The notes below the pieces were generated by a model that was not told the origin of the DNA, did not search any database, and saw only the letters and a program-made list of their open reading frames with translations. 54,565 bases of DNA from Chloroflexota bacterium (GTDB lineage Bacteria > Chloroflexota > Chloroflexia > Chloroflexales > Roseiflexaceae). Location of the stretch: NCBI GenBank assembly GCA_003670675.1, contig QWQY01000001.1, forward strand, positions 1 through 54,565, read 5' to 3'. The translations under genes and the position numbers were made by a program. Below are positions 32,900 through 54,342 of this stretch, piece after piece (position 1 is the stretch's first letter; each line of letters begins with the position of its first letter).

Positions 32900-32980
32900 G
32901 CGACCTCTTGTAACAGATTATACATACGCGATTATACGGTATTGCAGCGCCTCCCCGAGCACAATGGTGGGACGTGCGCA

Positions 32981-37306: not shown

Positions 37307-37354
37307 CGTTGTCTCCTCTGGTGGGGCGTATCGTGCCTGCATTGTACCAGCGCT

Positions 37355-38107
37355 TTAGCCGCGCCCGACAAACGGCATGTTGGTCGCCATAATGGTCTGG
37401 AACAACACATTGGCGCTCAACGGCAACTCGGCCATCTGGACAATCGCCGTGCCGACGTGAGCGACATCCATCAGTGGTTCGGCGACCACCGCGCCATGTG
37501 CTTGCATGATGCCGCTGCCCATGCGTTCGGCCATATCGGTCGCCGCGTTGCCGATGTCGATTTGGCCCACGGCGATGCGGTAGGCACGGCCGTCGAGGGC
37601 TGCCGTTTTGGTCAAGCCGGTGACCGCATGTTTGGTCGCGGTATAGGCTATCGAATGCGGCCGTGGGGTCGTTGCCGATATCGATCCGTTGTTGATGATG
37701 CGCCCACCCTGCGGGGTTTGTGCCTTCATGACGCGGAACGCATGCTGTAGACAGTAGAACATTCCGTTCAAATTGACGTCGACCGTGGCCTTCCAATCGT
37801 CGATGTCGAGCTCGTCGATGGGCACGGCTGGCGCACCGCGACCGGCGTTGTTGAACAACAAATCCACCCGTCCATACTGCGCGACCGCTGCGTCGAACAG
37901 CGCCCGCACCTGGACCGGCTTGGTCACATCGGTGGGCATTACCAGCATCTGCGCGGGTGTGACGGCGTCGCGGGCGACCGCATGCAGTCGATCGGCGTTC
38001 CGACCGGCGAGCACGACGTTCCAACCCGCAGCGCACAACGCCAGACTGGCAGCACGACCGATGCCGCTACCGGCACCCGTCACAATGGCGGTTTTGGGGG
38101 TCTGCAT
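37355..38107 (-). CDS. Short-chain dehydrogenase/reductase (SDR)
   Basis: [22 protein letters not shown]. Confidence 0.85.
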
Positions 38108-38233
38108 GGGCAGTACCTTTCTCGTTGACGATGGCATGATGATGAGAAAACCAAAGGGTCGGAGGCCTGGGATGCGTCACCGTACGTGCACGGACGGGGC
38201 GGTTGGGGTGATGTGCGCGGCCATCTGACGCAA

Positions 38234-38287: not shown

Positions 38288-39082
38288 TTATTTGGCCGTC
38301 GGTTTGCGCAAAATAAAGAAGTAATACGGGGCATCGGCGGGTGCAGGGGCATTGTACAGTGGGCGCAAGATGGGCTCCCACAGCCAATTGAGGGTGAACG
38401 GCGCCGCCAAAATCCAGCGGCCGAGGTATTTGCGGGTCAGCAACGACGGAGCGGCCAGGTAGTGGCTCAGATCGAACAGTGCCAGGGCCTCGTCGCTGAA
38501 ATACGGGCGGCAGGACACGACCTCGAAGCCGGCTTCTTCGAAGCGGGCGCTCCAGTCGGCCTTGCTCAAGGTGTTGCGGTGTACCGATACTTTGTTGAAC
38601 CAGCGGCCGTAGATGCCGCCGTCGAAGCCTAGTGCATTGAGGATTTTGGTGCCCAACAACTGCTCGGGGAAGCGGTTGCCGACCACCGATGCGACGAAAT
38701 GCGCACCGGGCTTCATGGTGCGGAACGTCTCGGCCAAAGTCTCTTTGAGGGGCAGCACGTGCTCGAGCACACAATTGCTGAATGCCGCCTCGAAGGTGTT
38801 GTCTGCAAACGGCAACTGCTTGCCGTCGGCGATGCTCAGCCCCTGATAGACGCCGCGGGCTTGTGCCTCGAGCGTGTCGCTTTTGATGGGGTCGATGCCG
38901 TAGATCTTTTTGCCGGGGAAGACAATCTGGGCAAAGGTACCGTCACCGCTGCCGACGTCGAGAATGGGCTCGGGCATGGTGGGGGCCGTCTCGGCAAAGA
39001 GACGGGCTTCGATCATCCGAATCATCACCCGGTGGGGTGGCAAGGTCATCAAATGCGGGGTGAGGAAGTCTTGGGTGGTCAT
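38288..39082 (-). CDS. Class I SAM-dependent methyltransferase
   Basis: ILDVGSGDGTFA (motif I), FSNCVLEHV. Confidence 0.8.
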   Translation of the reverse strand: MTTQDFLTPHLMTLPPHRVMIRMIEARLFAETAPTMPEPILDVGSGDGTFAQIVFPGKKIYGIDPIKSDTLEAQARGVYQGLSIADGKQLPFADNTFEAAFSNCVLEHVLPLKETLAETFRTMKPGAHFVASVVGNRFPEQLLGTKILNALGFDGGIYGRWFNKVSVHRNTLSKADWSARFEEAGFEVVSCRPYFSDEALALFDLSHYLAAPSLLTRKYLGRWILAAPFTLNWLWEPILRPLYNAPAPADAPYYFFILRKPTAK

Positions 39083-39083
39083 C

Positions 39084-40232
39084 TCAATTGCTCCTTGACA
39101 AGCGCTGGAACAACGCTTCGTAGGCGGTCACGGTCCGGTCAGTACTGAAGCGCGCCGCGATTTCGTCACGACTACGCTGGAATCGCTGGGGGTCGGCGAT
39201 AATCGTCAAAATCGCGTCGCCGAGTGCATCCGAATCACCGATGGGTACAACGAGCCCCATCCCGGTCTGGGTGGGGGGTTGCCGCACGCCGGGGAGGTTG
39301 GACGCTATCGATGGCGTGCCGCACAACATCGCCTCGACTTGGACCAGGCCAAACGACTCGGTCGAGTTGAGGCTGGGCACGGTCACCACATCGCAGACGT
39401 GGAAGAACGTCGCCAGTTCGCGTTGCGACAGCGTACCCACAAACGTCCAGTTGTTGCGGTACTTCTCGAACAGTGGCGCCAATCGGCGCGCGTAGGCTTC
39501 TTCGCCCAGTACTTGTTCGAAGGGGCCGGCAAAGAGTACCCGGGCGTCGGGATGCGCTGCAATGATTTTGGGCATGGCATCGAGCAGGACTTCGACGCCC
39601 TTTTCGGCTGCCAAACGGGCTGCCATCCCGATCACCGGACCGGTCAGGTTGTAGCGTTGTTTGAAGGCTTCGACATCTGCCGGCGACGAATCGGGGATTT
39701 CGACCGGCGGGGGGATAATCTCGACCTTGGATTTGAAGCGTGACAAGTAGGGCGAATGGCTGGCGAAGTCTTCGGTGTAGGCGACGATTTTGGTGGCCAG
39801 CGAGCCTGCCGCATTGTTGGCGACCTGCACGACTTTGTCGACGATGCGGTTAAATGCGCCCGGCGGCAGTTGCAGGTCACAGTGATAGGTGAGTACCACC
39901 GTTTTGCCCAACAGGCGCCCGCGCAGCGCCAGCCCCGGCGCATCGAACTGCGGCATATGCAAACTGAGCACGTCGTGCGACAGCGTTAGCCTGGTCGCCT
40001 CGAGGCCAAAGGTGGGCATGATGACGCCTTTGCTAATGCGGGCGGCCACTGGCACACGCACCACATGGACCCCATGCAGCACTTCTTCGCGGGGCAGGCT
40101 AGAGTCGTATTGTGATGTCAGTACGGTGACGTGATGCCCACGGGCAGCCAGGCCGACCGCGAGCCGTTCGGCATAGATGGTCAGACCACTAGTGTAGGGT
40201 CGATAGTAGGTGAGGGCGACCAGTACGCGCAT
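39084..40232 (-). CDS. Glycosyltransferase family 4, WcaI-like
   Basis: MRVLVALTYYRPYTSGLTIYAERLAVGLAARGHHVTVLT and the C-terminal ESFGLVQVEAMLCGTP (EX7E). Confidence 0.82.
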   Translation of the reverse strand: MRVLVALTYYRPYTSGLTIYAERLAVGLAARGHHVTVLTSQYDSSLPREEVLHGVHVVRVPVAARISKGVIMPTFGLEATRLTLSHDVLSLHMPQFDAPGLALRGRLLGKTVVLTYHCDLQLPPGAFNRIVDKVVQVANNAAGSLATKIVAYTEDFASHSPYLSRFKSKVEIIPPPVEIPDSSPADVEAFKQRYNLTGPVIGMAARLAAEKGVEVLLDAMPKIIAAHPDARVLFAGPFEQVLGEEAYARRLAPLFEKYRNNWTFVGTLSQRELATFFHVCDVVTVPSLNSTESFGLVQVEAMLCGTPSIASNLPGVRQPPTQTGMGLVVPIGDSDALGDAILTIIADPQRFQRSRDEIAARFSTDRTVTAYEALFQRLSRSN

Positions 40233-40235
40233 AGG

Positions 40236-41264
40236 TTAGCGTCTTTCGATTTCGTCACGGCTGGCGGCGACCCAGTTCCACAAGCGTTCGATGCCCTGGT
40301 GAACATTGACCGAGGGCTTCCATTGCAGGGCGGCCATCGCACGGTCGACATTGAGGATACAGACCTTTTGATCGCCAGGGCGCCAATCTGCAAAGGCAGG
40401 GTCGACCACGGGGCTCCCGTTGAGTGCATCGAGGATGGGGCGGAACTCGCGCCAGATCGAGATCGTGTAATCGGGTCCACCGCCTACGTTGAAGATTTCG
40501 CCGGCCACATGGTCGATGCGCAAAATCGCCTGCCGATAGGCGTTGACCAGGTCGTCCACATACAACAAATCGCGGACCTGCTTGCCGTCGCCATAAATGG
40601 ACATCGGCCGTTTGAACTGCGTGGCAATGATGAAGTGGGCTGCCCAGCCCTGGTCTTCGACGCCGAACTGGCGCGGACCGTAGATCGCCGACTGCCGGAA
40701 GACGACAGTCCGCAAATCATAGATACGATGGTAGTCACGCACGTACTGGTCGCCGGTACCTTTGGAACAGCCGTACGGTGAGTGAAAGTCGAGCGGTTGC
40801 GCCTCAGTGACACCACGTGGCAGGTCGCGATAACGCCAGCGGGTGGCGTCTTCGACGACCACAATGTCCTCCATGCCGCCGTAGACCTTGTTGGTCGACG
40901 AGTAGAGCACGATAGGGTTGCGGCCACCGGCACGTGCGGCCTCGAGGACGTTGAAGGTCCCGAGTGCATTGATGTCGAAGTCTTCGCGCGGGTTGGCCAC
41001 CGACGTAGTGACCGCTACTTGACCGGCGAGGTGGATAATCGTGTCGGCGTCGGCGAGTGCCTCGGCAGTCAGCTTGGCATCGCGGATGTCGCCGCGACGG
41101 AGCACAACCTTGTCGCCGTAGCTGCGCTGCAGCCAGGCGAGATTGTGTGACGATCCCGGCCGTGAAAGGTTATCGTACAAGGTGACACGATAGCCGTCGG
41201 CGAGGAGTGCAGCAGCCAGATTCGCCCCGATGAAGCCTGCGCCACCGGTGATTACGATATGCAT
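40236..41264 (-). CDS. Extended-SDR NDP-sugar epimerase, CDP-paratose-2-epimerase-like
   Basis: ITGGAGFIGANL, DNLSRPGSSHNLAWL (compare Salmonella RfbE DNLSRKGATDNLHWL, recalled from memory), YGCSKG. Confidence 0.8.
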   Translation of the reverse strand: MHIVITGGAGFIGANLAAALLADGYRVTLYDNLSRPGSSHNLAWLQRSYGDKVVLRRGDIRDAKLTAEALADADTIIHLAGQVAVTTSVANPREDFDINALGTFNVLEAARAGGRNPIVLYSSTNKVYGGMEDIVVVEDATRWRYRDLPRGVTEAQPLDFHSPYGCSKGTGDQYVRDYHRIYDLRTVVFRQSAIYGPRQFGVEDQGWAAHFIIATQFKRPMSIYGDGKQVRDLLYVDDLVNAYRQAILRIDHVAGEIFNVGGGPDYTISIWREFRPILDALNGSPVVDPAFADWRPGDQKVCILNVDRAMAALQWKPSVNVHQGIERLWNWVAASRDEIERR

Positions 41265-41650: not shown

Positions 41651-44600
41651 ATGAATGTGAAGTCGTTCTTCCAACGGTCAGCAGGACAAACCGTCGCACT
41701 GCTGGCAGTTCTCTTGCTGGGTGCATACTTCCGTTTCGGCGGGTTGTTTATGTGGGACGAACCGTCGTTCCGCTTGCATCCCGACGAGCGATTCTTGACC
41801 GAAGTCGCCACGCAAATTCGCCTCCCCGCGAGCGTTACAGAATATCTCGACACGTCGAATTCACCGCTCAACCCCCGCAACGGGAACTATAAGTTTTTTG
41901 TCTACGGGATGGTCCCACACGAGTTGACGCGACTCACGGCGGTGTTGATTACGCCGCCCGAGCGATTGCCGGCGATGAACCCTGGGGAAGCTGCTCCAAA
42001 GCCCAACGCCGAAAAAGAAATCTCGGCCTTGATGCCGGAATTTATCCGCGCCATCATTAACCCAGATGGCCGCGACTATACCAGCGACATCCACAAAGTT
42101 GGGCGTGTCTGGTCGACGCTGTTTGACCTACTTTCTATCCTCGTCATCTACGGGTTAGGGCGCCGGTTATACGGTACAAGTGTCGGGTTGTTGGCAGCCT
42201 TGATGTACGCCGGTACAGGCTTTGCAATCCAGCAAGCACACTTTTTTACGGTCGATTCCACGAGTGCATTTTTCATATTGCTGACGGTCTATTACTCGGT
42301 CCGTGTGGCACAGCGTGGCTCGCTGACAGACTATGCCGGCGCCACATTTGCAATCGGTGCATCGATTGCCTGTCGTATTACACTTGCCACGGTCGCAGTG
42401 GTCACCATCGTGGCAGCCTTTAGTCGCATCTATGCCGCATGGCAACGCGGGAGTACCCGCGCCATGGCACGCGACTTTGGATTGCTCGTCCTCACCGGTG
42501 TGCTGGCGATTTTTGTAGCGCGGACATTAGGGCCAGACATGTTTGCGGGGACACTCCCCGGCGCGCCCGACAAACTGATCTTGACAGAAGTGTTGGGTGA
42601 GCGGGCTGTGGCTGTCGACGAGTTCTTCCAAGGGAAGGGGTTCTTCGATATACGCCCCGATGATCGATTCCTCAAGAGCATGGACGACATCCGGCGCTTT
42701 GCCTCGGGCGAGGTGGACTGGCCACCCACGCAGCAATGGGCGGCGCGGCCACGGTACGTATTTGCTTTGAGCAATATGGTCTATGCCGGCATGGGTGCAC
42801 CGTTGGGGATTGCAGCATGGATCGGGTTCTTGGTGGCAGGTTGGCAGTTGCTCCGTCGCAAGAAGCTGGTGCACCTCGTGCCTTGGGCGTGGGTACTGTT
42901 CTTCTTTGGCTGGCAGGGCGGCCAATTCTTGATGTCGATGCGCTATTACTTGCCGATATATGGCGTCCTGATTATTTTTGCTGCCTGGCTGGTGGTTTTG
43001 TTGGCGCAGCAACGCCAGCGTGTGTTTGACACGGTGATGCGCTGGATGTGGCAACCGGGCGACCCGGTGTTGCACCGTGCACGCGCCTTGACCATTGGGC
43101 GTAGCATTGCATTTATGGCGGTAGTACCAGCGCTGGTCGTGGTGACGGGTGCGTTGGCGTGGGGTTTTGCATTCTCACGCATGTACACCGAAGAACACAG
43201 TCGCGTGGCTGCGTCGCGCTGGATCTATACCAACATCCCGCCTGGGTCGGGCATCAGTGCCGAATCGTGGGACGATGGCTTGCCATTGGGGTTGGATGGT
43301 CGATCTGCGGATGAGTTCAAGGGCTATGCGTTCCCGGTATATGGCGAAGACGAAAAGAACAAATGGTACGGTAACGGCAACCCCGACGAGCTGGGGATGC
43401 TGGATCAAATCGACAAGGTCGATTACATCATCATGAGCAGCAACCGTGTCTACGACACGGCAGGGCGCTTGGTGATGCGCTACCCGGCACTCATCAACTA
43501 CTACAAAGCGTTGGCAGATGGGTCGTTGGGGTTCACGTTGGTTGCCGAGTTCCGCGCTGCTCCGCGGTTGTTTGGGTTCGAAGTACCGACGTCAGTCTGG
43601 GCCGAAGAAGCGTTTAGTGTCTACGATCATCCACGGGTCTTGATTTTCAAAAAGAACGACACCTACTCCAAGACCAAGGCCGAAGCGATTATTACCAAGG
43701 GCGTCGTTTTCGAAGAAGTCTACAAACTGCCCACCATCCGCGCCAGTGCCGTGATGACCGCCCTACACTTCACGGATGTGCAGTGGCCCACGTATCGCAA
43801 CAGTGCCAAATGGACCGAACTCTTCAGTACGGTCACTACCACCACGTTGCCATGGTTGTGGTGGTTGCTGGTCTTTGAGGTGATTGGGTTGGCAGGCTTT
43901 GTGTTGCTCCAAGGCGCCTTCCGCTGGATGCCGGATCGTGGCTACGGCCTCATCAAAATCCTGAGTCTGGTGACGGTTTCGTGGCTCATCTGGTTTGCGG
44001 CGAGCGTCAATCTGCTCGGCTTCACACGGACGGGGGTCGGTGTTGTCGCCGGCGCATGGGTCGCGTTGGCTGCCGTTGTCGGCTGGCGTCAACGTGCAGA
44101 GTGGCGCAGCTGGTGGAACCAATCGCGCTGGTTGATTCTGACCACCGAAGGATTATTTTTGCTGGCGTACGGCGCGTTTGTCCTGATTCGTGCGAGTAAC
44201 CCCGATCTGTGGCATCCCGCCCGTGGCGGCGAAAAGCCCATGGACCTGGCATTTTTGACGGCAGTTATCCGCAGCCCGGCCTTCCCGCCGATTGACCCGT
44301 GGTTCGCCGGCGGCATGTTGAACTATTACTACTTCGGTTTTGTGATGGTGGGCGTCTTGGTCCATCTGACCGGGATCGCGCCGGCAACTGCATACAACTT
44401 GGCGGTTCCAACGATTTTTGCCCTGACTGCGATCGGGTCGTGGAGCGTCGCATTGGCAGTCCAAGGTACCTTTGGGGTAATCTACGCCGGCAAGTGGCGG
44501 TATTGGCTAGCAGCGCTGACCAGCGACGGCAAACGCAAGCTCGCTGGTGCTGCGTTGGCTGCGTTGTTTGTGGTGTGTGCGGGTAACTGGTCACAAGCGC

Positions 44601-47600
44601 TATGGTATTTGCCCAATACGGGTGAGGCCGGGTTCGAATGTGACAAAGGCACGTCATATGCCATGCAGGCCGAATGCAAAGGGCGTGGCGAATGGGCCTT
44701 CTGGGATGCAACACGTGTCGTCTCGATCAAAACGGGTGACGGCGTCATCAACGAGTTCCCGTTCTTTACCTTCTTGTTCTCGGATCTGCACGCGCACATG
44801 TTTGGTTTGCCCATGTTGGTGGGCAGTCTGGGTGTGATGTTGGCGTTGATACGCCGTCGTCGCCATGCCCGCGCGGTGTGGGCGCGCTGGCGCGAACGTC
44901 TCGTCCTGTTGGGTTTTCTGGGGATGTTTGCCGGTGTCTCGTACGCCACCAACACTTGGGACTATCCGACCATATTCGGGATGTCCGTCGTCACATTGGC
45001 CTTGCTCGCCTGGCGTGATCACCAGCAGCGGCCCAACGCGGTCGCACACTTGATGGGATTGTTGGCATCGGTAGCAACGGTATTTGGGTTATCCAAGGTG
45101 TTCGTCTGGCCATTTAGTCGCGCGTTTGCCAGTGATTACACGGGTTTTGACCCATGGACAGGGCCACAGACTCCGGCTTCGTTGTTCTACGAAATCTCAG
45201 GAATGTGGGTCTACGCTGCCCTATTTGCGGCTGTCATCTTTGTCATCCGGGCCGGGTGGGTGCATCGCTTTGTGGCCGCTGGTCTGTTGGTGGTGACCAT
45301 TGCTGGCATTGCAGCAAGCGTCTATTTTGCATTGCCCGCGCTGTATGTCGAAGGGTTCGCGATTGCCGTTTTGGTGTTGTTGATAAGCACGGTGTTGACT
45401 CGGTCGGGTACGGTGCGCCAGTCGGTCCCGTGGTTTGGCCGAACAACGGCGATACAGCTCGAATTGCCCGTGTTTGACGCTCTCGAACGGCGTGCCGCAC
45501 CACAGATAGTGCCGATCGCACTCGAGACGGTCTTTATGATGGTGATGGTGTTGGCGGTGTTCGGAATCTCGGCGCTGACCGAGGTGCTGGTTGCCAAGTC
45601 CGACATCGGCCGCATGAATAGCGTCTTTAAATTCGGTATGCAGGTATGGGTCTTTGGTGCGATTAGTGCGGGCGTGTTGCTGACATGGGTCTGGCAAAAG
45701 CTGCGCACCTCACCCGTCGCGGTGCGCGCGTCGTGGTTGGCAGTCACAGCGATTCTTGTTGGTGCGTCGTTCGTCTATCCGATTACCGCTACACCGGTGC
45801 GCATCGCCGAGCGATACGACAAAGACGCACCCATGTCACTCGACGGCGAAGCGTATCTGCGCTCAGCCAATGCTTCGTGGGGCGAGAACGGTGTCAATTT
45901 CAGCTTCAGCGAAGATGCAGATGGCATTGCGTGGTTGCGTGCAAATGTGACCGGAACACCCGTGTTGCTCGAAGCACACGCCGAGGCCTACCGCTGGATT
46001 ACCCGCATCGCCACACATACCGGCATGCAATCATTGATGGGTTGGCCGTGGCATGAACAACAGCAACGCAGTGTGGCGGATGCCGGCGTCATCATTGACG
46101 CCCGCAAGCAGGCCATTCAACGCTGGTACACGAGTACGGATGCACGGCAGACCTTTGCCGAGATGCAGAAGTACGGTATCGAGTACATCTTCTTTGGCCG
46201 CATGGAACGCGCATTGTATGGCGAAAATGCCGGCAACGCGTTCAGTGAGTTGGCGGTGTCCAAGGATATCACTGAAGTGTTCCGGAGCGGTGAGACGGTT
46301 ATTTACCAAGTCCCTCGTGCCGACCATGCGCCAGGCGTGCTCAAAACCGGTACGTTGGCGGTCTTTGCGCCGAACCCCATCCCCCAGCAGTCATTGCTGA
46401 CTACTGATAATCAGTCATTGCCCGATGTCACTGCACCAGGGTGGAACCCCGTAACCGACACGGTGCCCGTCATCGTGCTGTGGATGCTCGCCTGGTATCT
46501 CATCGCGTTGCTGGGCTTGTTGCCCGCACTCTGGCTCGGTCCCGCTCAATGGCCGTGGGCGCGACTCCTCGGCTTGGTCATTCTCGGCTATGCACTGTGG
46601 TTGCCTGTCAGTGCGCGCCTCATGTATAACAGCACACTCGGCCTCGCCATCGCCCTGGTATTGACCGTGCTGGTTAGTGCGTGGTCGTTGGTGCGTATCG
46701 GTATGCGTCTGCAACAGGGTACTGATGCCTCGCTGCGCTGGTTTGATCCTGCAGCATTGCCACGCTACATCGGTGACGGTTGGAAGTGGGTCAAAACGAC
46801 ACTGCGCTACCAACGCGGCACGATTATCCGCTTCGAATTGTTGTTTCTCGTTTCGTTTGCCATTATGGCGCTGATACGCATGGCAAATCCTGATGTCTGG
46901 CATCCGATCTGGGGTGGCGAAAAGCCGTTCGAGTTTGGGATCCTGAACGCCGTGTTGCGTAGCCCCGTTATGCCGCCGTATTCACCATTCTTCAGTGGTG
47001 GAACGTTGAATTATTACTACTACGGGTACGTGTTGGTCTCGTTGCCATTGCGTTTGACCGGGATTGCCCCAGAACTTGGGTTCAATCTCATTCTCGCCAC
47101 GCTCTATGCGTTGATGCTCACTGGCATGGCGGCTCTTGTCTGGCGTGTTGCCAAGGTACGCTGGGTCTGGGTGTTGGCAGTTTTGGTGACTGGTGTGTTG
47201 GGTAATCTGGCTGGCGCGTTCCCCGTTGGGTGGGCGCGTGGCTTTGGCGAGGTGATTACCGCACTCCGCGAAAACGACTTTGCAACCGTAGGGAGCGTGT
47301 TGGGCGATTGGTTCATGGGACCGAGTCGCGTCATCCCCAGCACGATAACCGAGTTCCCGTTCTGGAGCTTCCTCTTTGCTGACCTGCATGCGCATGTTAT
47401 CGCGATGCCGCTTCTCATGCTGGCGCTGGCACTTGCCTGGCAAGCCCTCGAGAAAGCCGAACTGCCCAGTATCTGGTGGCTTTTGTCGGGGCTGACGGTC
47501 GGGGCGTTGTCGGTGACAAACTCGTGGGACACTCCCACCATTGTGTTGATCTTTACGGGTGCGTTGGTACGCCGTGTATGGGTCAGCGAACATCGCTGGC

Positions 47601-49363
47601 GCTTCCCGCTTGCCATCATGCAGGGATTGGCGGTTGCAGGTATTGCCGTCGTCTTGTATCTGCCCTTCTTCCAAAATTATGCGCCTCAAGTGGGCTCGAT
47701 AGACTGGGTCAAGAACACATCGCCATGGACTGCGTGGTCCGCAGTTTGGGGATTGTTCCTCATCCCGAGCATGGTTGTGACGGCACTCTTGGCATGGAAC
47801 CGTCGTTGGGTACAGACCGTGGTAGCGGCGCTGTTGGTGGGCGTGATGTTGGTGGGTCTGGCGCTCGAGTTCTATCCGCAGCCAGCACTGGCCGTTATCA
47901 CCCCGTATGTGGGCAACCCACGGATGTGGATCGGTGCGCTCGTCCTGTTGCTGATACCCAGTTTGTTCCGCCGCCAACCAGACAACGCACTGTGGTTTGG
48001 GTTGTGGTTGGTGTGTATTGCATGGGGATTGACAGGAGCGGTCGAGTTCGTCTTTCTCCGCGATCACATGAGTGACGGCGACTGGTATCGCATGAACACC
48101 GTCTTTAAGTTTGGGATGCAGAGTTGGCTGTTGCTCACCGTCGGGCTCGCAGCGACGTTGCCCGCCCTCAAAGACCGGTTTGCGCGGTTGCCACGCATGG
48201 GTGCCAATGTGCTGACGGTGCTGATGCTGGTGCCAGTCTTGCTGGGTGCAGCCTTCCCCATCGGTGCTATCCCCAGCCGGGTGGCATACCAGATCAATCC
48301 AGACCAGGCGCTGACCTTAGACGGATTGGCGTTCATGAACGAGGGGACCTACGAGGCGTACGACAAGACTATTCCGTTTGTGCATGATTATCAGGCGATG
48401 GAATGGCTCAAAAAGAACGTCAAGGGTTCGCCGGTCGTCATGCAGTCGAGTATCGAGTTTTATCGCGGGTACGGTGTGCGGATTGCCGCCAACACGGGAT
48501 TCCCGACGGTGGTCAGTCCGTTGCACGAGAGTGAACAGCGCAATCCAGATGTGGTAGGCGCACGTGATGCAGACGTCATTGATTTCTATCGGAGCGAAGA
48601 CCAGTCCGTCAAGCGGCGCATCCTGTCGAAGTATCGTGTCAGTTATATAGTCGTAGGGATTATCGAACGCGCAGCATACGGCGAAAAGGGTGCTGCGGTA
48701 ATCGCCGATATGCCCGAATTACGCGAAGTGTACAAAAACGCAGAGACCAAAATCTATGCAGTGTCTCCCAACATTGTGGCAGTTGCCCCGTACGCCAACA
48801 TCAACGGCGATTCGAACAGCCCAAATGTAGGGTTCCCCGTAGAGCAGATCGAGCCGGTCCAAGAAGACTTGACGGCACTCGAAAGTGCATACAGTGCTGA
48901 CCCCAACAATATTGCGGTCATGCTCGATTTGGTGGCTGGATTCCGGCGCAATTATCGCTTGGAGGAAGCTGCAGCGGTATTGCAGAAGGGCGTCATTGCA
49001 CACCCGGGTGATGTGCCACTGTTGCACATCCTCGGTGACATTTCGATCGAAGCTGGTTTGACAGAGCAGGGGATTGTGGCATATCGATCGGCAATTACCT
49101 ACGCCGATAATCCTGGCAACGTCAACAAATTGATCACGGGATATATCAACGCTGGTTTGTTGGATGACGCATTGGCAGAGGTCAACGCCGCGATCCAAAA
49201 GAGCCCGACGTTCTGGGACTTTTTGGTCACACGTGCCAATATTTCGTCACAATTGGGTGATTATGAAGCAGCCAGAGCAGATTACAACGCATATCTCGAT
49301 AATGCGCCGGAGGATGCTCTCTTCCGAAATGATGTCCAACGCGCCTTGGATGCACTGAACTAA
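41651..49363 (+). CDS. Giant 2570-aa polytopic membrane protein: GT-C-like N-terminal module, two Chlor_Arch_YYY (DUF2298) modules and C-terminal TPR repeats
   Basis: HPDERF is at 41777-41794. NYYYFG is at 44321-44338 and NYYYYG at 47009-47026. EFPFFTFLFSDLHAHM is at 44753-44800 and EFPFWSFLFADLHAHV at 47351-47398. MNSVFKFGMQVW is at 45614-45649 and MNTVFKFGMQSW at 48092-48127. The TPR-like tail starts at about 48850. It is a single uninterrupted ORF. Confidence 0.85.
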   Translation: MNVKSFFQRSAGQTVALLAVLLLGAYFRFGGLFMWDEPSFRLHPDERFLTEVATQIRLPASVTEYLDTSNSPLNPRNGNYKFFVYGMVPHELTRLTAVLITPPERLPAMNPGEAAPKPNAEKEISALMPEFIRAIINPDGRDYTSDIHKVGRVWSTLFDLLSILVIYGLGRRLYGTSVGLLAALMYAGTGFAIQQAHFFTVDSTSAFFILLTVYYSVRVAQRGSLTDYAGATFAIGASIACRITLATVAVVTIVAAFSRIYAAWQRGSTRAMARDFGLLVLTGVLAIFVARTLGPDMFAGTLPGAPDKLILTEVLGERAVAVDEFFQGKGFFDIRPDDRFLKSMDDIRRFASGEVDWPPTQQWAARPRYVFALSNMVYAGMGAPLGIAAWIGFLVAGWQLLRRKKLVHLVPWAWVLFFFGWQGGQFLMSMRYYLPIYGVLIIFAAWLVVLLAQQRQRVFDTVMRWMWQPGDPVLHRARALTIGRSIAFMAVVPALVVVTGALAWGFAFSRMYTEEHSRVAASRWIYTNIPPGSGISAESWDDGLPLGLDGRSADEFKGYAFPVYGEDEKNKWYGNGNPDELGMLDQIDKVDYIIMSSNRVYDTAGRLVMRYPALINYYKALADGSLGFTLVAEFRAAPRLFGFEVPTSVWAEEAFSVYDHPRVLIFKKNDTYSKTKAEAIITKGVVFEEVYKLPTIRASAVMTALHFTDVQWPTYRNSAKWTELFSTVTTTTLPWLWWLLVFEVIGLAGFVLLQGAFRWMPDRGYGLIKILSLVTVSWLIWFAASVNLLGFTRTGVGVVAGAWVALAAVVGWRQRAEWRSWWNQSRWLILTTEGLFLLAYGAFVLIRASNPDLWHPARGGEKPMDLAFLTAVIRSPAFPPIDPWFAGGMLNYYYFGFVMVGVLVHLTGIAPATAYNLAVPTIFALTAIGSWSVALAVQGTFGVIYAGKWRYWLAALTSDGKRKLAGAALAALFVVCAGNWSQALWYLPNTGEAGFECDKGTSYAMQAECKGRGEWAFWDATRVVSIKTGDGVINEFPFFTFLFSDLHAHMFGLPMLVGSLGVMLALIRRRRHARAVWARWRERLVLLGFLGMFAGVSYATNTWDYPTIFGMSVVTLALLAWRDHQQRPNAVAHLMGLLASVATVFGLSKVFVWPFSRAFASDYTGFDPWTGPQTPASLFYEISGMWVYAALFAAVIFVIRAGWVHRFVAAGLLVVTIAGIAASVYFALPALYVEGFAIAVLVLLISTVLTRSGTVRQSVPWFGRTTAIQLELPVFDALERRAAPQIVPIALETVFMMVMVLAVFGISALTEVLVAKSDIGRMNSVFKFGMQVWVFGAISAGVLLTWVWQKLRTSPVAVRASWLAVTAILVGASFVYPITATPVRIAERYDKDAPMSLDGEAYLRSANASWGENGVNFSFSEDADGIAWLRANVTGTPVLLEAHAEAYRWITRIATHTGMQSLMGWPWHEQQQRSVADAGVIIDARKQAIQRWYTSTDARQTFAEMQKYGIEYIFFGRMERALYGENAGNAFSELAVSKDITEVFRSGETVIYQVPRADHAPGVLKTGTLAVFAPNPIPQQSLLTTDNQSLPDVTAPGWNPVTDTVPVIVLWMLAWYLIALLGLLPALWLGPAQWPWARLLGLVILGYALWLPVSARLMYNSTLGLAIALVLTVLVSAWSLVRIGMRLQQGTDASLRWFDPAALPRYIGDGWKWVKTTLRYQRGTIIRFELLFLVSFAIMALIRMANPDVWHPIWGGEKPFEFGILNAVLRSPVMPPYSPFFSGGTLNYYYYGYVLVSLPLRLTGIAPELGFNLILATLYALMLTGMAALVWRVAKVRWVWVLAVLVTGVLGNLAGAFPVGWARGFGEVITALRENDFATVGSVLGDWFMGPSRVIPSTITEFPFWSFLFADLHAHVIAMPLLMLALALAWQALEKAELPSIWWLLSGLTVGALSVTNSWDTPTIVLIFTGALVRRVWVSEHRWRFPLAIMQGLAVAGIAVVLYLPFFQNYAPQVGSIDWVKNTSPWTAWSAVWGLFLIPSMVVTALLAWNRRWVQTVVAALLVGVMLVGLALEFYPQPALAVITPYVGNPRMWIGALVLLLIPSLFRRQPDNALWFGLWLVCIAWGLTGAVEFVFLRDHMSDGDWYRMNTVFKFGMQSWLLLTVGLAATLPALKDRFARLPRMGANVLTVLMLVPVLLGAAFPIGAIPSRVAYQINPDQALTLDGLAFMNEGTYEAYDKTIPFVHDYQAMEWLKKNVKGSPVVMQSSIEFYRGYGVRIAANTGFPTVVSPLHESEQRNPDVVGARDADVIDFYRSEDQSVKRRILSKYRVSYIVVGIIERAAYGEKGAAVIADMPELREVYKNAETKIYAVSPNIVAVAPYANINGDSNSPNVGFPVEQIEPVQEDLTALESAYSADPNNIAVMLDLVAGFRRNYRLEEAAAVLQKGVIAHPGDVPLLHILGDISIEAGLTEQGIVAYRSAITYADNPGNVNKLITGYINAGLLDDALAEVNAAIQKSPTFWDFLVTRANISSQLGDYEAARADYNAYLDNAPEDALFRNDVQRALDALN

Positions 49364-49374
49364 GCAGGGGAGAC

Positions 49375-51702
49375 GTGATGATCAACGATGTGATTGTCCA
49401 TTGGTTGGTGACCATGCTCTGTGTTGCCGTGGGCGTTCCCTGGGCGAAATACCTGTTCAACACACTTCCACATGCACTCATCGGTGTCGCCCGACCATTG
49501 GGGTATGCGGTCATCGGGGTGGTGGTATGGGGATTCGCGATTATCGGGTTGCTGCCGTTCAACAGTGGCAGCGTAATCTTTGTCGCAATCGGGATGGGGT
49601 ACCTCGGGTGGCGCTTGGCCGGCGGAATCGATGCTGCCTGGTTGCGTGCGCATTGGCGTGCTTGGCTCTTGTCAGAAGTAATTTTTTTGGCCGGATTTGC
49701 AATGGTCGTGTTTATTCGTGGTCGCACACCCGATCCGTGGGGCACCGAGCGCCCCATGGATTATGCCTTCTTCAATAGTATGTTGCATTCACCCAGCTTT
49801 CCACCGTTGGATCCATGGATGTCTGGGATGACCATCAATTATTACTACGCCGGGTATTTGCTGGCAGCAATCCCTGCATCGATATCAGGTGTGGATGCCG
49901 CAGTGGGCTACAATCTCGCACTCGCGACGACTGCGGGCATGATTGGGGCGACCGCTGCGACCATTGTCGTGAGTATGGCAGCGGTCTGGCATCCCATTGC
50001 ACAGCCGTTGCGCAAACGGACGGCTGCGCTGTTTGCGGGATGTGCCTTCGTTGCGGTGTTATTGGCCGGCAACATGGGCGGTTTCTTGCAGCTCGTCAGT
50101 GGATTACCCGAAATTCTCGCACTCGAGCCCGCAGACGTTGTCCCTGCGCTCCAAAACGGCCTCGGTGCACGCGAGACGTATACATTGGCGCGGCCATTCC
50201 AGGGGTGGGATTTCAATGGCACCGCTCAGCTGACTCCGCGCGACACGTGGCAGGATTTCAATTGGTGGAACCCGTCACGGGCGGTCTGGGATACGCTTGT
50301 TGCCGATGATGGTGCGTGGGAACGCCGCTACTCCATCACCGAGTTCCCGTTCTTTTCGTTCTGGTTGGGCGACATGCACCCGCACGTGATGGCACTGCCG
50401 TTTGGGTTGCTACTTATCGGATTGGCGCTCCGCCGGGCCAGTGCACCACTGCCGACGATGGTCGTCCCTGCACTTATGCTTGGGTTGTTGTACCCGATGA
50501 ATAGTTGGGACTACCCGACCTATTTGGTGCTCTATCTGGGCGCGATGGTCTGGCAGAGTGTCCGGAGCAAAGCGAATTGGCGGTCGGTGGGTAGCGAGGC
50601 GGCAATCACCGTATTAGCGTCGTATGCATTGTATTTGCCGTTCCACATGAGCTTTGTGTCGTTGGTGGGCGGTGCCGAGCCGACGGTTGATATTCCGATT
50701 GTGGCGACGTTCTCGCAGTACTTTGGGCTTGCCCCGGCACGGACCGAAGCACACGGGCTGTTTGTCATGTTCGGTTTGTTCCTTGTACCCATACTCGCTG
50801 CAGCGGTGTCGTTCGCACGGGATCGGTTGGAGTGGGCATTGGTTGCAGTGACCGCAGTCGTCGCTGTTGTCGGTGCGCTCGGTGGCTTTGTGACACTCAC
50901 CGCCGTGCCATTGGCAGCGCTGTTGTTGCACTATGCGTTCCGTCGCACGGATGTTTCGCCGGCATTTGCCATCTGGTTGGGGGTCGTCGCTTTGGCGGGT
51001 ATCTTGACCTTGGTGGTCGATGTGGTGTATATCCGCGATACGTTCAGCTCGCGCATGAACACAGTGTTCAAGTTTTATTATCAAGTCTGGGCGTTGTGGG
51101 GTGTGGCTGCCGTGTTGGGGATTTGGCACGTGTGGTCGACCCGGACCACTGCCTGGCGCGTCGGGTTGCTGGTACTGGTCGTCCCGTTGACGTTTGCAGC
51201 ACTCAGTTACCCCGCTGCGACTCTGGGCAAAGCACTGCTCGAGCCACGCGAAGGTACCCTGTATGGCAAAACGCCGCGTGATTACGCAGTAGGTGGACCC
51301 GAGTCTGTGGCGTGGCTCCGCCAGCATGTGACTGCAGGGTCGGTGGTGCTCGAGGGTGTGGGGTCTTCGTACGACATCGAAGGGGATGGCTTTGGTGGTG
51401 TCTCTGCATCGACGGGATTCCCCACAGTGTTGGGCTGGCCCGGGCACGAGTACCAGTGGCGAGGTGGGCAGGTGGGGCTTGATCAGCAAATCAGCCAGCG
51501 CGAAAACGACGTGCGCACCATGTATTCGTCGCTCGATGAAGCAGAAGTCCGTGCGTTGCTCGAGAGCTACCATGTGCGCTATATCTATATCGGCAACGCC
51601 GAGCGCAAAGCATATGGCGGCGAGGCTGGGATGCTGATCAGCACCATTGCAGAGCAAGTATTTGCCGAAGGTGATATCGCCATCTACGCGTACAAAAAAT
51701 AG
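49375..51702 (+). CDS. Single-module Chlor_Arch_YYY (DUF2298) polytopic membrane protein, 775 aa
   Basis: NYYYAG is at 49837-49854, EFPFFSFWLGDMHPHV at 50341-50388, MNTVFKFYYQVW at 51055-51090, and STGFPTVLGWPGHEYQWRG near the C-terminus. It starts 11 nt after the giant gene's stop. Confidence 0.85.
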   Translation: MMINDVIVHWLVTMLCVAVGVPWAKYLFNTLPHALIGVARPLGYAVIGVVVWGFAIIGLLPFNSGSVIFVAIGMGYLGWRLAGGIDAAWLRAHWRAWLLSEVIFLAGFAMVVFIRGRTPDPWGTERPMDYAFFNSMLHSPSFPPLDPWMSGMTINYYYAGYLLAAIPASISGVDAAVGYNLALATTAGMIGATAATIVVSMAAVWHPIAQPLRKRTAALFAGCAFVAVLLAGNMGGFLQLVSGLPEILALEPADVVPALQNGLGARETYTLARPFQGWDFNGTAQLTPRDTWQDFNWWNPSRAVWDTLVADDGAWERRYSITEFPFFSFWLGDMHPHVMALPFGLLLIGLALRRASAPLPTMVVPALMLGLLYPMNSWDYPTYLVLYLGAMVWQSVRSKANWRSVGSEAAITVLASYALYLPFHMSFVSLVGGAEPTVDIPIVATFSQYFGLAPARTEAHGLFVMFGLFLVPILAAAVSFARDRLEWALVAVTAVVAVVGALGGFVTLTAVPLAALLLHYAFRRTDVSPAFAIWLGVVALAGILTLVVDVVYIRDTFSSRMNTVFKFYYQVWALWGVAAVLGIWHVWSTRTTAWRVGLLVLVVPLTFAALSYPAATLGKALLEPREGTLYGKTPRDYAVGGPESVAWLRQHVTAGSVVLEGVGSSYDIEGDGFGGVSASTGFPTVLGWPGHEYQWRGGQVGLDQQISQRENDVRTMYSSLDEAEVRALLESYHVRYIYIGNAERKAYGGEAGMLISTIAEQVFAEGDIAIYAYKK

Positions 51703-51764: not shown

Positions 51765-53615
51765 CTAGCGATACCCGCTGGCTTGCATCTCGAAGAGTTG
51801 CGCATACCCCTGATTGTTGGCGATGAGCTCGGCGTGTGTGCCGAGTTCGGCGAGTCTGCCATCGGCAAGGACCGCAATGCGATCAGCGATCCGCACGGTA
51901 CTGAAGCGGTGCGAAATCAGGATAGCGGTGCGCCCTTTGGTCAGTTCGCGGAATCCGACAAAGACCTCGTGTTCGCGTTGGGCATCGAGCGCCGAGGTGG
52001 GTTCGTCCAAAATCAAGATGCCGCCGTCGCGCATGAATGCCCGACTCAGCGCGATTTTTTGCCATTGACCGCCTGACAACTCACGCCCTTGTTGGAACTG
52101 ACGGCCCAACATCGTGTCGTACCCATTGGCAAGCTCTGCCGCAATCTCGTCTGCACCACCGTCGACCGCTGCCCGTGCAATGCGTGCGGCGTTGTCGCGT
52201 TCTGCGATGTTGCCGAAGCCGATGTTGTCGGCCAGGGTCATCTGATAGCGGACAAAATCTTGGAAGATGACCCCGATGTGGCGGTTGAGGTCTTCGAGCG
52301 CAAACTGCCGGATGTCGATCCCATCGATCGAAATGTAGCCTTCGGTCGGGTCATACAGACGCGTCAATAACTTGACCAGCGTTGTTTTGCCGGCGCCGTT
52401 GAGCCCGACGAGTGCCATAGTTTCGCCTGCGCGTATGGTGAACGAAATGTCGCGCAACGTCCATTGTGTGTGGTCGGGGTAACGAAACGATACATTGTGG
52501 AAGGTGATGCCCTGCACCATGGGATCGGGCACTGGGACTGGGTGTTCAGGCGAGCGGATGATGGGCTGGATGGCAAAGAACTCTACCAGGTTTGTCATAA
52601 ACATGCCGTTTTCGAGCAGGCCGTTGACCCCGCTGAAGAGACTCTGGAAGGTGGTTTGACTCTGCCGCAACAACGCGATGTAGAACGTCATGCCGCCGAT
52701 GGTCACTGCCCCGTTGAGTGCCAGCCACACCACATACCCGTAGGCAATGTAGAAGCTGAGGGTCGAGACGAAGCCCCAGACGATGCTCAGGAGTGACCGT
52801 TTTTTTGAGAGGGCCAAATCTTCGTGGTAATACTGTTCGAAGGTTTGGGTATAGCGTTGCATGATGGGTGCCGCTAGCCCAAACAACCGTACTTCTTTGA
52901 TGGTTTTGTCACTGGTCAGCAGTTCCTCGAGGTAACGGAGCTGGCGAAACTCGGGAGCACGTCGCGTCAGTAAGCGGAAAAATAGCCGGCTATAACGCCC
53001 TTGCGCGATAAACGCCGGGATACTCGCGCCAAAAAGAATCAGCGCAAGGACCGGCGCAAACGCAATGACCAGCACGAGGAAGGACACCAACGAAATGAAT
53101 TGCTGGACGATGGCGAAGCTGCCCGTGACCAACGCCAATGCGCGGAACTCTGCCTGTCGGCGGGCATTTTGGAGCCGGTCATAGAACGTCGGATCTTCGA
53201 AGTATTGGATGTCGAGTTCGGCTGACTTGGTCATCACCCGCGTCGCTACGTAATTGGACAGGCGTGCGTTGAGGGTGTGGTCTGCCAAAATACGCACCTG
53301 GCTGATGATGAATGCAATGCTCACCAACCCGAGTTCGACCGCGACCCACGGGGCACAGATGGATACAGCCGCCCAGGGATCGTTGAGTGTCATACCCAGC
53401 ACTACTGTATCGACGATGCGACCGGCGGTATATGCTTGGGCTGCTGGGAGCCCCGCGCTGAGCAGTGTCGTGATGGAATAGACGAGCGCACCTTGCGGGT
53501 CGGCTTCGCGCACCATGGCAAAGGCTGCAGGCAGTGTTTTGATTGCTTCAGATGTCTGGGAACGCCAGTGCACCCAGCGTTCGCGGAGGGTCTTTGCATC
53601 ATTTTCGTCGGTCAT
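51765..53615 (-). CDS. ABC exporter, fused permease and ATPase (MsbA/multidrug-like)
   Basis: Six-TM N-terminal domain, Walker A GLNGAGKTT, signature LSGGQWQK, Walker B ILILDEPTS. Confidence 0.88.
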   Translation of the reverse strand: MTDENDAKTLRERWVHWRSQTSEAIKTLPAAFAMVREADPQGALVYSITTLLSAGLPAAQAYTAGRIVDTVVLGMTLNDPWAAVSICAPWVAVELGLVSIAFIISQVRILADHTLNARLSNYVATRVMTKSAELDIQYFEDPTFYDRLQNARRQAEFRALALVTGSFAIVQQFISLVSFLVLVIAFAPVLALILFGASIPAFIAQGRYSRLFFRLLTRRAPEFRQLRYLEELLTSDKTIKEVRLFGLAAPIMQRYTQTFEQYYHEDLALSKKRSLLSIVWGFVSTLSFYIAYGYVVWLALNGAVTIGGMTFYIALLRQSQTTFQSLFSGVNGLLENGMFMTNLVEFFAIQPIIRSPEHPVPVPDPMVQGITFHNVSFRYPDHTQWTLRDISFTIRAGETMALVGLNGAGKTTLVKLLTRLYDPTEGYISIDGIDIRQFALEDLNRHIGVIFQDFVRYQMTLADNIGFGNIAERDNAARIARAAVDGGADEIAAELANGYDTMLGRQFQQGRELSGGQWQKIALSRAFMRDGGILILDEPTSALDAQREHEVFVGFRELTKGRTAILISHRFSTVRIADRIAVLADGRLAELGTHAELIANNQGYAQLFEMQASGYR

Positions 53616-53738: not shown

Positions 53739-54272
53739 TTAGGGCTTGTATAGGGTCGCACGCTCCTCTATTGGCATAAGGACGAATTGATCGACACGGT
53801 TGAGGTAGAGGAAGCTCTGGCCTGCAGCAGTGACAATCATGTCCGGGCGGGTATCGTTATTGGCATCGCGGAAGGTCAGCAATACCGGAGTGGTGGCTGC
53901 GTTGGTGCCGGTCAATGCTGGGCCGTTGATGACGCGCGTCTGTGCGGAAGCACCGCCGGGGATGTGCATAATGACGATGCGGCTGTTGACATTCATCGCA
54001 ACGAAGTGGCTGGGTTGATCAACGTGGTCATTGATCCCGACGTATGCGTCGGCATGAAAGGTGCGCGTTGCACCGTAGCGGACGTCGGCCAATTGGACGC
54101 TGCCCCACTGAAAGAGGGTCGTGACAGCGATGTAGATGCTCACGATTGCCAGCAGGGCGCTCCCGACGAAGCGTGGAGTGTAGGTCGGCGCTTGGTGGAC
54201 GAACATAGCGGTCGTGTCGGAGCGGACAGCACGGATGGCTGGATTGCGGATATCACGGATTTGCATTGCCAT
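53739..54272 (-). CDS. Hypothetical single-pass membrane protein
   Basis: GAGGAGG lies 8 nt upstream of the ATG at 54272. The TM helix is FVGSALLAIVSIYIAVTTLF. The extracytoplasmic part has an FG-GAP-like stretch (FRDANNDTRPDMIVTAAG). Confidence 0.5.
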   Translation of the reverse strand: MAMQIRDIRNPAIRAVRSDTTAMFVHQAPTYTPRFVGSALLAIVSIYIAVTTLFQWGSVQLADVRYGATRTFHADAYVGINDHVDQPSHFVAMNVNSRIVIMHIPGGASAQTRVINGPALTGTNAATTPVLLTFRDANNDTRPDMIVTAAGQSFLYLNRVDQFVLMPIEERATLYKP

Positions 54273-54302
54273 CAGGGGTACCTCCTCAAGTCGTACGCAT
54301 GT

Positions 54303-54342
54303 TCGAAACATCTGTGCTAAATATATGCGAACAGATGTTCGA
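54303..54342. promoter_or_regulatory. Palindromic putative operator/promoter upstream of the 177-aa gene
   Basis: TCGAAACATCTGT-N15(AT-rich, TATAT)-ACAGATGTTCGA. The arms match at 12 of 13 positions with a 1-nt bulge. It lies 30-70 nt upstream of the start codon. Confidence 0.45.

Follow-up and report, generated by a model that had tools for sequence, protein, structure and literature searches.

A stretch of 54,565 nucleotides (nt) from a Chloroflexota bacterium of the Roseiflexaceae (assembly GCA_003670675.1, contig QWQY01000001.1, positions 1 to 54,565 of the forward strand), called the window below, contains two adjacent genes whose products, a giant of 2570 amino acids (aa) and a smaller protein of 775 aa, probably make up a glycosyltransferase machine of class GT-CA, with four modules that act on the outer side of the membrane. 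Both proteins belong to the DUF2298/TIGR03662 (Chlor_Arch_YYY) family, both types of module present in them have a GT-C fold in their predicted structures, invariant motifs are retained in every module, and the pairing of the two genes is conserved. We infer that the sugar donor is lipid-linked and that the product is an envelope glycan, as had been proposed in an earlier reading of the letters and ORF translations made without database searches (the sequence-only reading).

The gene pair and its family

The two genes and the parts of their products are given below; positions are counted from the first letter of the window.
41651-49363, plus strand: giant gene, ATG start, 2570 aa, made up of an N-terminal module (N-module), YYY module 1 (YYY1), YYY module 2 (YYY2) and a TPR tail
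41651-43849, plus strand: N-module, aa 1-733, a PMT_2/GT39-like GT-C module (PMT_2 match, AlphaFold2 (AF2) model, Foldseek)
43850-46450, plus strand: YYY module 1, aa 734-1600, polytopic with a C-terminal soluble domain (TIGR03662 stretch at aa 734-1554)
46451-48820, plus strand: YYY module 2, aa 1601-2390 (Pfam DUF2298 at aa 1644-2162)
48821-49360, plus strand: TPR tail, aa 2391-2570 (TPR_19 and related TPR models at aa 2497-2558)
49375-51702, plus strand: small gene, a single YYY module, 775 aa from a GTG start (Pfam and NCBIfam matches, AF2, Foldseek)

The two open reading frames (ORFs) have the same orientation, are separated by 11 nt, and lie exactly where the sequence-only reading had placed them. 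The junction (window 49361-49380) has the form TAA-GCAGGGGAGAC-GTG-ATG, in which the listed GTG at 49375 is followed directly by an ATG at 49378. The latter is probably the true start of the small gene, giving a product of 774 aa, since the closest homologues are 774 aa long and the Shine-Dalgarno-like GGGGAG is better spaced for the ATG. That the giant is a pseudogene or a chance ORF was considered and dropped because 31 complete, full-length orthologues exist.

Membership of the family, which the sequence-only reading had suggested, is borne out by scores far above the cutoffs. With NCBIfam TIGR03662 (Chlor_Arch_YYY; cutoff 300.25) the giant scores 978 bits in two stretches and the small protein 492 bits; with Pfam DUF2298 (PF10060; cutoff 27.8) the values are 657 bits, again in two stretches, and 326 bits. 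The C-terminal ~180 aa of the giant match several TPR models (TPR_19, E 3e-7), in agreement with the TPR tail described in the sequence-only reading. All of the motifs quoted by that reading are found at the expected spacing. HPDERF occupies aa 43-48 of the giant. The others occur twice in the giant and once in the small protein, the position in the small protein being given last: NYYY(F/Y/A)G at aa 891, 1787 and 155; EFPF...D(L/M)H(A/P)H at aa 1035/1045, 1901/1911 and 323/333; MN(S/T)VFKF at aa 1322, 2148 and 561; and GGEKP/GTERP at aa 859, 1755 and 123. The family is large, its profile matching 9,284 clusters at 50% identity (E <= 1e-3).

Predicted folds of the modules

The N-module matches Pfam PMT_2 (E 4.5e-14, 53 bits; cutoff 26), and its database relatives, which carry PF02366/PF13231, are annotated as "glycosyltransferase family 39" or "ArnT-like." It is best described as PMT_2-like rather than as a canonical PMT, since no MIR Pfam match was found in the giant. 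Searches of all Protein Data Bank (PDB) chains with the sequence of the small protein, with that of the N-module and with a YYY profile yielded only chance matches (E > 0.7), and a comparison of folds was therefore needed. The AF2 model of the N-module, built from 33 homologues (pLDDT 87, pTM 0.89), was compared with the PDB using Foldseek, and GT-C-fold proteins occupied all 48 of the top 48 places. The best of these was AglB (E 1.4e-9), and the others include yeast and human STT3, ALG9, ArnT, ALG12, Pmt4, PglB, DPY19, AftA and EmbA/B/C, as well as the glycosylphosphatidylinositol (GPI)-transamidase subunit PIG-U, which also has the GT-C fold (ranks 40 and 44).

The model of the small protein (pLDDT 92.2, pTM 0.93) reveals 16 predicted transmembrane (TM) helices and a C-terminal α/β domain. 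Its 12 best Foldseek matches are all GT-C proteins (prob 0.84-1.00), headed by the C-mannosyltransferase DPY19 (E 7.6e-7), AglB (E 6.8e-5) and PglB (E 1.5e-3), and including AftA (E 2.7e-3; target TM-score (TMt) 0.44-0.47) and ArnT. AftD stands lower in the list, at rank 21 (prob 0.82); apart from it, the matches from rank 13 onward are transporters and receptors with prob < 0.15. The isolated C-terminal globular domain of AglB-S2, also among the best 12, resembles the C-terminal domain of the small protein (prob 1.0, TMt 0.52). Judged from these models, the kinship between YYY and GT-C proteins is distant and at the level of fold, yet specific, and the GT-C character that the sequence-only reading had proposed for both kinds of module agrees with the structural comparison.

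The very large size of these polytopic proteins, and the many transporters low in the YYY list, might suggest that YYY is no enzyme but moves lipid-linked glycans across the membrane as a transporter or flippase. This is most improbable: every transporter match has prob < 0.15 with a TM-score of ~0.1, and it is not transporter-like to have extracytoplasmic domains so large and conserved, or loops in which charged motifs are invariant (see the following section).

The presence of AglB and PglB among the best matches, together with the AglB-like C-terminal domain, raises a further alternative, namely that YYY acts as an oligosaccharyltransferase, moving a pre-assembled oligosaccharide en bloc from polyprenyl-pyrophosphate to surface proteins in the manner of AglB/PglB/STT3. 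The C-terminal domain would then bind the peptide acceptor and the conserved DxHxH motif a metal; DxHxH does resemble DxD/DxH, the second metal-binding motif of oligosaccharyltransferases. We consider this unlikely. The WWD[YWFN]G motif, of which WWDYG is the familiar form, was not found in either protein, and no STT3 (PF02516) match was obtained with Pfam, even when the 49 YYY homologues were scanned under relaxed conditions up to E = 5. YYY has 16 TM helices rather than 13, and DPY19 and AftA, which use monophosphate donors, match it equally well. Furthermore, four fused or paired modules suggest stepwise additions over a single en bloc transfer.

Topology and invariant residues

For the topology model, the helices predicted by AF2 were taken as TM helices, with the exception of aa 126-138 and 158-171 of the small protein, which were taken as juxtamembrane helices of a large loop. 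The resulting YYY module has 16 TM helices with both termini outside. Across 49 homologues, lysine plus arginine per residue amounts to 0.13 in the short inside loops of this model versus 0.05 in the outside loops, and the large outside loops are net acidic. Because of the predicted helices and the positive-inside rule, every invariant YYY motif is predicted to face outward: GTERPMD, PPxDPW, NYYY, EFPF, DxHxH, NSWD, IRD, RMNxxFKF and the C-terminal WxxHExQWR. The sequence-only reading had expected its acidic motifs to lie on this side of the membrane, and the model is in accord. It had also located them directly behind the first TM helix, which is correct for HPDERF of the N-module but not for GGEKPMD/GTERPMD, which follows the fourth YYY helix.

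The N-out/C-out arrangement is the sole topology that fits the fusions, since outside domains lead from the N-module to YYY1, from YYY1 to YYY2 and from there to the TPR tail. The tail is predicted to be extracytoplasmic because the YYY modules are N-out/C-out. The N-module itself is predicted to have 11 TM helices, an inside N-terminus and an outside C-terminal α/β domain, from a reading of the predicted helices against the charged loops (RR at aa 171-172, RRKK at aa 402-405, and an R/Q-rich stretch at aa 453-484). TMTC enzymes, which belong to the GT-C/PMT clan, are likewise reported to possess 11 TM helices (PMC7801869). The giant would thus span the membrane approximately 43 times (11+16+16, predicted).

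Three motifs contain candidate catalytic or binding residues.
41777-41794, plus strand: HPDERF, giant aa 43-48, opening the first helix of extracytoplasmic loop 1 of the N-module
49741-49761, plus strand: GTERPMD, small protein aa 123-129, opening the first of the two helices in the large outside loop behind TM helix 4
50341-50385, plus strand: EFPF...DMHPH, small protein aa 323-337, at the outer end of a TM helix

Motifs were aligned in 32 giants and 27 small proteins; identity of their loci to the window ranges from 35% to 97%, and every YYY module as well as the N-module retains its motif set among proteins only 35-45% identical. H43, P44, D45, E46 and F48 of HPDERF are invariant in the 32 giants, and in the AF2 model the motif opens a helix (aa 44-55) of the long loop behind TM helix 1. 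In YYY, E125, R126 and D129 are invariant in the 49 homologues, and the loop that holds them contains the two helices mentioned above. Loop 1 of GT-CA enzymes has two helices, the first one bearing the acidic catalytic base (PMC13503287). On the strength of the models, D45/E46 are candidates for the catalytic base of the N-module; E125/D129 are the candidates in YYY, because the predicted two-helix loop with an acidic pair on its first helix would match this definition of GT-CA (PMC13503287) if YYY helix 4 corresponds to GT-C TM helix 1.

In the small protein E323, F324, P325, D333, H335 and H337 are invariant, and by analogy we propose EFPF...DMHPH as a candidate metal- or phosphate-binding site. 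Ahead of EFPF, the AF2 model places a small β-strand domain (aa 269-320, window ~50179-50334) within the large outward loop, and this insertion seems to be longer in homologues of 850-1000 aa.

The corresponding invariant residues of the giant are E861, K862, D882, N891-YYY, E1035, D1045xHxH1049, N1101xWD, R1321xN, F1326 and K1327 in YYY1, and E1757, K1758, P1759, E1761, N1787-YYYY, E1901, D1911xHxH1915, N1957xWD and R2147-MNxxFKF in YYY2. The core common to each type of YYY module is E-(K/R)-P-x-(D/E), N-Y-Y-Y-x-G, E-x-P, D-x-H-x-H, N-x-W-D and R-x-N-x-x-F-K. One position sets YYY2 apart: the aspartate of PPxDPW, invariant in YYY1 and in the small protein, is systematically missing from YYY2, which reads PPYSPF (giant aa 1775-1780, window ~46973-46990). 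A difference in donor or acceptor specificity may lie behind this. The low mutual identity of the three YYY modules (27-29%) marks the duplications as ancient. Since each type nevertheless keeps the same invariant core, the alignment indicates that the three are under purifying selection as distinct active sites, rather than being one enzyme and its decayed copies.

Conservation of the pair

Neighborhoods were compared in the best 80 genome loci, and pairing was counted on the 46 informative ones, which have at least 8 kb of upstream sequence. A gene containing the N-module lies directly upstream of the small YYY gene, in the same orientation, in 41 of these 46 loci; the TPR tail is present in 32. 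Complete giants number 31 (2497-2923 aa), Chloroflexus, Roseiflexus, Kouleothrix, Chloroploca and Oscillochloris being among their sources; 26 of them have a complete small gene immediately downstream. A 4-nt overlap between giant and small gene in Chloroflexus and Chloroploca (L021, L023, L028 and L048; near locus position 9990) suggests translational coupling. The co-occurrence of the single-module and giant classes, to which the sequence-only reading had drawn attention, is therefore present here but is not peculiar to the window: the pair is the normal arrangement in Chloroflexales. As a normal state it points to a hetero-complex or a pathway.

A shorter variant is seen in loci from Anaerolineae and other Chloroflexota metagenome-assembled genomes (MAGs; L068, L069 and L080), where a fusion of the N-module with one YYY module (1527-1700 aa) precedes the small YYY gene. 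L069 has further GT-C genes nearby, namely a PMT_2 protein with NHL repeats (1118 aa) and a PTPS_related protein (772 aa), and upstream a GT4 glycosyltransferase, a methyltransferase and an LPG_synthase_TM protein.

The closest loci (94-97% identical) are from freshwater MAGs labeled "uncultured Roseiflexaceae." All of the 80 best loci are Chloroflexota-like, the search patterns being subfamily-specific. The sequence-only reading had described the family as restricted to Chloroflexi and Archaea; judged from MAG labels it may extend further, some DUF2298 proteins being assigned to Acidobacteria or Vicinamibacterales. A separate observation concerns three loci (L008, L013 and L016) titled "uncultured Klebsiella sp." MAGs, 61-62% identical to the window; these labels are almost certainly wrong, because each locus carries a complete giant and small gene of the Chloroflexota type.

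Neighboring genes in the window

The first 32 kb of the window contains housekeeping genes (e.g., those for Era, Lgt, UvrB, PNPase, RuvA, FtsH and TilS), and a glycan-type cluster extends from ~32.5 kb to 53.6 kb. Besides the pair, its features, and the gene that follows it, are these.
32573-36253, plus strand: 1226-aa paralogue of the N-module with a C-terminal polytopic extension (PMT_2, E 4.8e-6)
36302-37342, minus strand: GFO/IDH/MocA oxidoreductase (Pfam)
37355-38137, minus strand: short-chain dehydrogenase/reductase (SDR; Pfam)
38288-39082, minus strand: methyltransferase (Pfam)
39084-40232, minus strand: cytoplasmic glycosyltransferase of family GT4, GT-B fold (Pfam Glycos_transf_1 and Glyco_transf_4)
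40236-41264, minus strand: NAD-dependent sugar-nucleotide epimerase/dehydratase, divergent neighbor of the giant (Pfam Epimerase, E 2e-49)
51765-53615, minus strand: MsbA-like ABC half-transporter, convergent with the small gene (ABC_membrane and ABC_tran)
53739-54311, minus strand: 190-aa protein, no family match; matched in 14 loci (Roseiflexus, Kouleothrix and relatives)

The epimerase is found upstream of the giant in 13 of the 80 loci and scores below every NCBIfam equivalog cutoff. GT4 is matched in 15 loci, including an Anaerolineales locus where it is 54% identical to that of the window. Both recur in close relatives and in one more distant Chloroflexota MAG. The methyltransferase, SDR and oxidoreductase, which belong to the same divergent operon, probably modify sugars and are kept only in the closest relatives. 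On the other side, the ABC half-transporter is near the small YYY gene in 24 loci, and MsbA-related NCBIfam models match it below their cutoffs. Outside Roseiflexaceae and Kouleothrix neither this exporter nor the 190-aa protein is conserved; together they may be an export or flippase partner of the pair. Clustering the neighbors of 56 long loci revealed no universal sugar-gene neighbor beyond the pair itself, the exporter, GT4, epimerase and 190-aa protein all being lineage-limited. The association with sugar genes in other genomes, which the sequence-only reading had anticipated, thus holds only in some lineages, namely close relatives, one distant MAG and Anaerolineae. The NCBIfam matches of the neighbors are all below the curated cutoffs and point to no specific sugar.

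These neighbors bear on the oligosaccharyltransferase alternative as well. In its favor, an epimerase, a GT4 acting in the cytoplasm and an ABC transporter that may be a flippase adjoin the pair, as is the case in pgl-type loci; against it, the cluster has no priming phosphoglycosyltransferase.

The 1226-aa paralogue is 28% identical to the N-module over 720 aa (E 4e-69) and carries the motifs MQHPDERF, FVYGTLP and EEWDD. Its true start is probably near M146 (~nt 33008), since the first ~145 codons look non-coding. In its C-terminal ~460 aa, the stretch WRVEAP...ADQPLDPWLAGH has a weak likeness to the loop motif of YYY; this polytopic C-terminus may be a decayed YYY module, which we do not claim at an hhalign probability of 9.7%. 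Window positions 34000-36000, a compositional extreme (GC 0.669, AT skew -0.257), coincide with the C-terminal polytopic part of the paralogue.

Proposed mechanism and its weighing

Donor type, catalysis, sequential action and acceptor are what we infer for the pair, as follows. One PMT_2/GT39-like module with a DE pair in loop 1, the two YYY modules of the giant and the third YYY module, which is the small protein, would be embedded in the cytoplasmic membrane. In each YYY module, the invariant outward groups would make up a pocket that takes a polyprenyl-phosphate-linked sugar and perhaps a metal, the DxHxH motif and the arginine and lysine residues serving as phosphate and metal site by analogy with DxD/DxH of oligosaccharyltransferases. 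The C-terminal α/β domains (AglB-like in YYY) and the TPR tail would hold the acceptor, to which the four modules in succession would each add a different sugar or linkage outside the cytoplasm. The epimerase/dehydratase, GT4, methyltransferase and oxidoreductases would supply or pre-assemble sugars in the cytoplasm. Isoprenoid-phosphate-linked sugars are the defining donors of GT-CA enzymes (PMC13503287).

In the Chloroflexota envelope, this acceptor would be either a glycoprotein of the surface or sheath or a polysaccharide linked to the wall. A surface glycoprotein is favored by the TPR tail, the PMT-like module, and the peptide-acting enzymes DPY19, AglB and PglB as best matches. A wall polymer is favored by the multi-GT-C layout, the Emb and Aft matches, and the wall-bound heteropolysaccharide that has been reported for Chloroflexus.

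A number of results weigh against a glycosyltransferase function for the pair. The TM-scores of the YYY matches are low (0.28-0.47) and the rmsd values large. No sequence link between YYY and solved proteins was found when phmmer and a 49-sequence profile were run against all PDB chains. Comparison of the YYY and N-module profiles with hhalign gave no genuine match; a single 35-column match proved to be an artefact, as one profile member, P0121, continues into the YYY module of its own protein. When the 49 YYY homologues were scanned with Pfam under relaxed conditions, no recurrent weak match to a GT-C family was seen, the one homologue that matches Dpy19 (E 0.014) being anecdotal. Within the model, three extra N-terminal helices would precede the presumed GT-C conserved module, YYY helix 4 presumably being the counterpart of GT-C TM helix 1. 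Chloroflexus and Roseiflexus loci do not have the sugar-gene neighbors, so the association noted above does not extend to them, and the window cluster is without a polyprenyl-phosphate sugar synthase (GT2), a GtrA-type flippase or a priming phosphoglycosyltransferase. Lastly, the searchable open literature contains no functional or experimental data on any DUF2298/TIGR03662 member, the two mentions found being incidental; other hits for "YYY domain" concern the unrelated Y_Y_Y domain.

The weak fold similarity and the missing sequence link to catalytic GT-C families would suit YYY modules that have the GT-C fold but carry out no glycosyl transfer. Such modules could be scaffolds or substrate-holders like PIG-U, which is present in the Foldseek lists of both module types (rank 35 for YYY), or could catalyze another reaction at DxHxH, for instance as hydrolases or phosphotransferases that depend on a metal and have lipid-linked or wall substrates; an HxH-type motif is unusual among characterized GT-C enzymes. 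We regard this as improbable, since acidic and basic residues are strictly invariant in outward loops of three deeply diverged paralogous modules. The acidic pair is predicted to sit on the first helix of a long outward loop, as does the GT-CA catalytic base, and YYY is fused to a bona fide PMT_2-type module and adjoins sugar-metabolism genes. A glycosyltransferase machine with four modules therefore remains the reading that we prefer.

Placement in GT-C turns a family of "hypothetical membrane proteins" into a testable enzyme with a topology, candidate catalytic residues and a conserved partner arrangement. As far as the models go, what is new is a divergent GT-C family with its own 16-TM core and motifs, its three-module fusion (two YYY modules joined to the N-module), outside TPR tail and fourth-module partner. 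Chloroflexota envelopes have no genes for lipopolysaccharide or for the BAM system, yet extra layers, suggested to be polysaccharide or protein, have been described (PMC13319060). A four-module extracytoplasmic machine typical of the phylum is a plausible candidate for the builder of the extra layer. More speculatively, and with considerable doubt on our part, DUF2298/YYY may be a GT-C family that has so far gone unclassified and is new to CAZy, its core having 16 TM helices and its active site being built on DxHxH, with the Chloroflexales pair as an assembly line of four active sites that makes the polysaccharide or glycoprotein layer of a multilayered, diderm-like envelope in bacteria lacking an outer membrane. 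The same gene pair is present in cultivated Chloroflexus and Roseiflexus strains, where a knockout is feasible. A fusion of three GT-C modules with ~43 TM helices is moreover an unusual object for studying the coupling of successive GT-C reactions.

Comparison with known systems

By sequence, the YYY modules fall outside GT66, GT39 and GT105. Their best structural matches are DPY19 (GT98) and AglB/PglB/STT3 (GT66), with which they share a polytopic layout and a C-terminal extracytoplasmic α/β domain like that of AglB; a long two-helix first outward loop with an acidic catalytic residue would be a further common feature. YYY differs in having no detectable sequence similarity to them, no WWDYG or DK/MI motifs, and 16 rather than 13 TM helices, of which three are extra and N-terminal. 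It possesses instead a motif set of its own (NYYY, EFPF, DxHxH, NxWD and RxNxxFKF).

The N-module is closest to PMT/PMT_2 (GT39, and GT83 ArnT), to judge from its PMT_2 match, the DE pair behind TM helix 1, the 11 predicted TM helices and a fold that matches ArnT and Pmt1/2/4. It departs from them in its lack of a MIR domain, in its fusion with two YYY modules, and in ending with a C-terminal α/β domain of ~220 aa with invariant motifs of its own (EHWDD and SNR).

The TMTC1-4 O-mannosyltransferases (GT105) are GT-C enzymes with an extracytoplasmic/lumenal TPR domain thought to engage protein acceptors (PMC7801869). The likeness to the giant, a GT-C membrane domain followed by TPRs on the outside, is one of architecture alone: a TMTC protein combines a single catalytic module with ~10 TPRs, whereas the giant has three modules and ~4 TPRs, and no DUF1736 match was found in it. 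By comparison, the mycobacterial Emb and Aft proteins (GT53, GT85 and GT89) are large GT-C enzymes with extracytoplasmic C-terminal domains that work one after another on a wall polysaccharide, with polyprenyl-phosphate sugars as donors. The Foldseek lists of the modules include AftA, AftD and Emb; these enzymes are, however, separate proteins rather than fused modules, and have no sequence relationship with YYY.

Within TIGR03662/DUF2298 itself, both proteins are full members by score. The TIGRFAM text distinguishes a single module of 700-900 aa from an N-extension followed by two modules and TPRs, and both descriptions fit here; the range given there is presumably Chloroflexi, Archaea and one Clostridium. 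The architecture is thus already part of the family definition, and the assignment to GT-C by predicted structure is no conceptual surprise. What this analysis adds to the family is the GT-C fold, the 16-TM topology with outward-facing motifs, the adjacent pair as found in Chloroflexales, and the two-module variant of the Anaerolineae.

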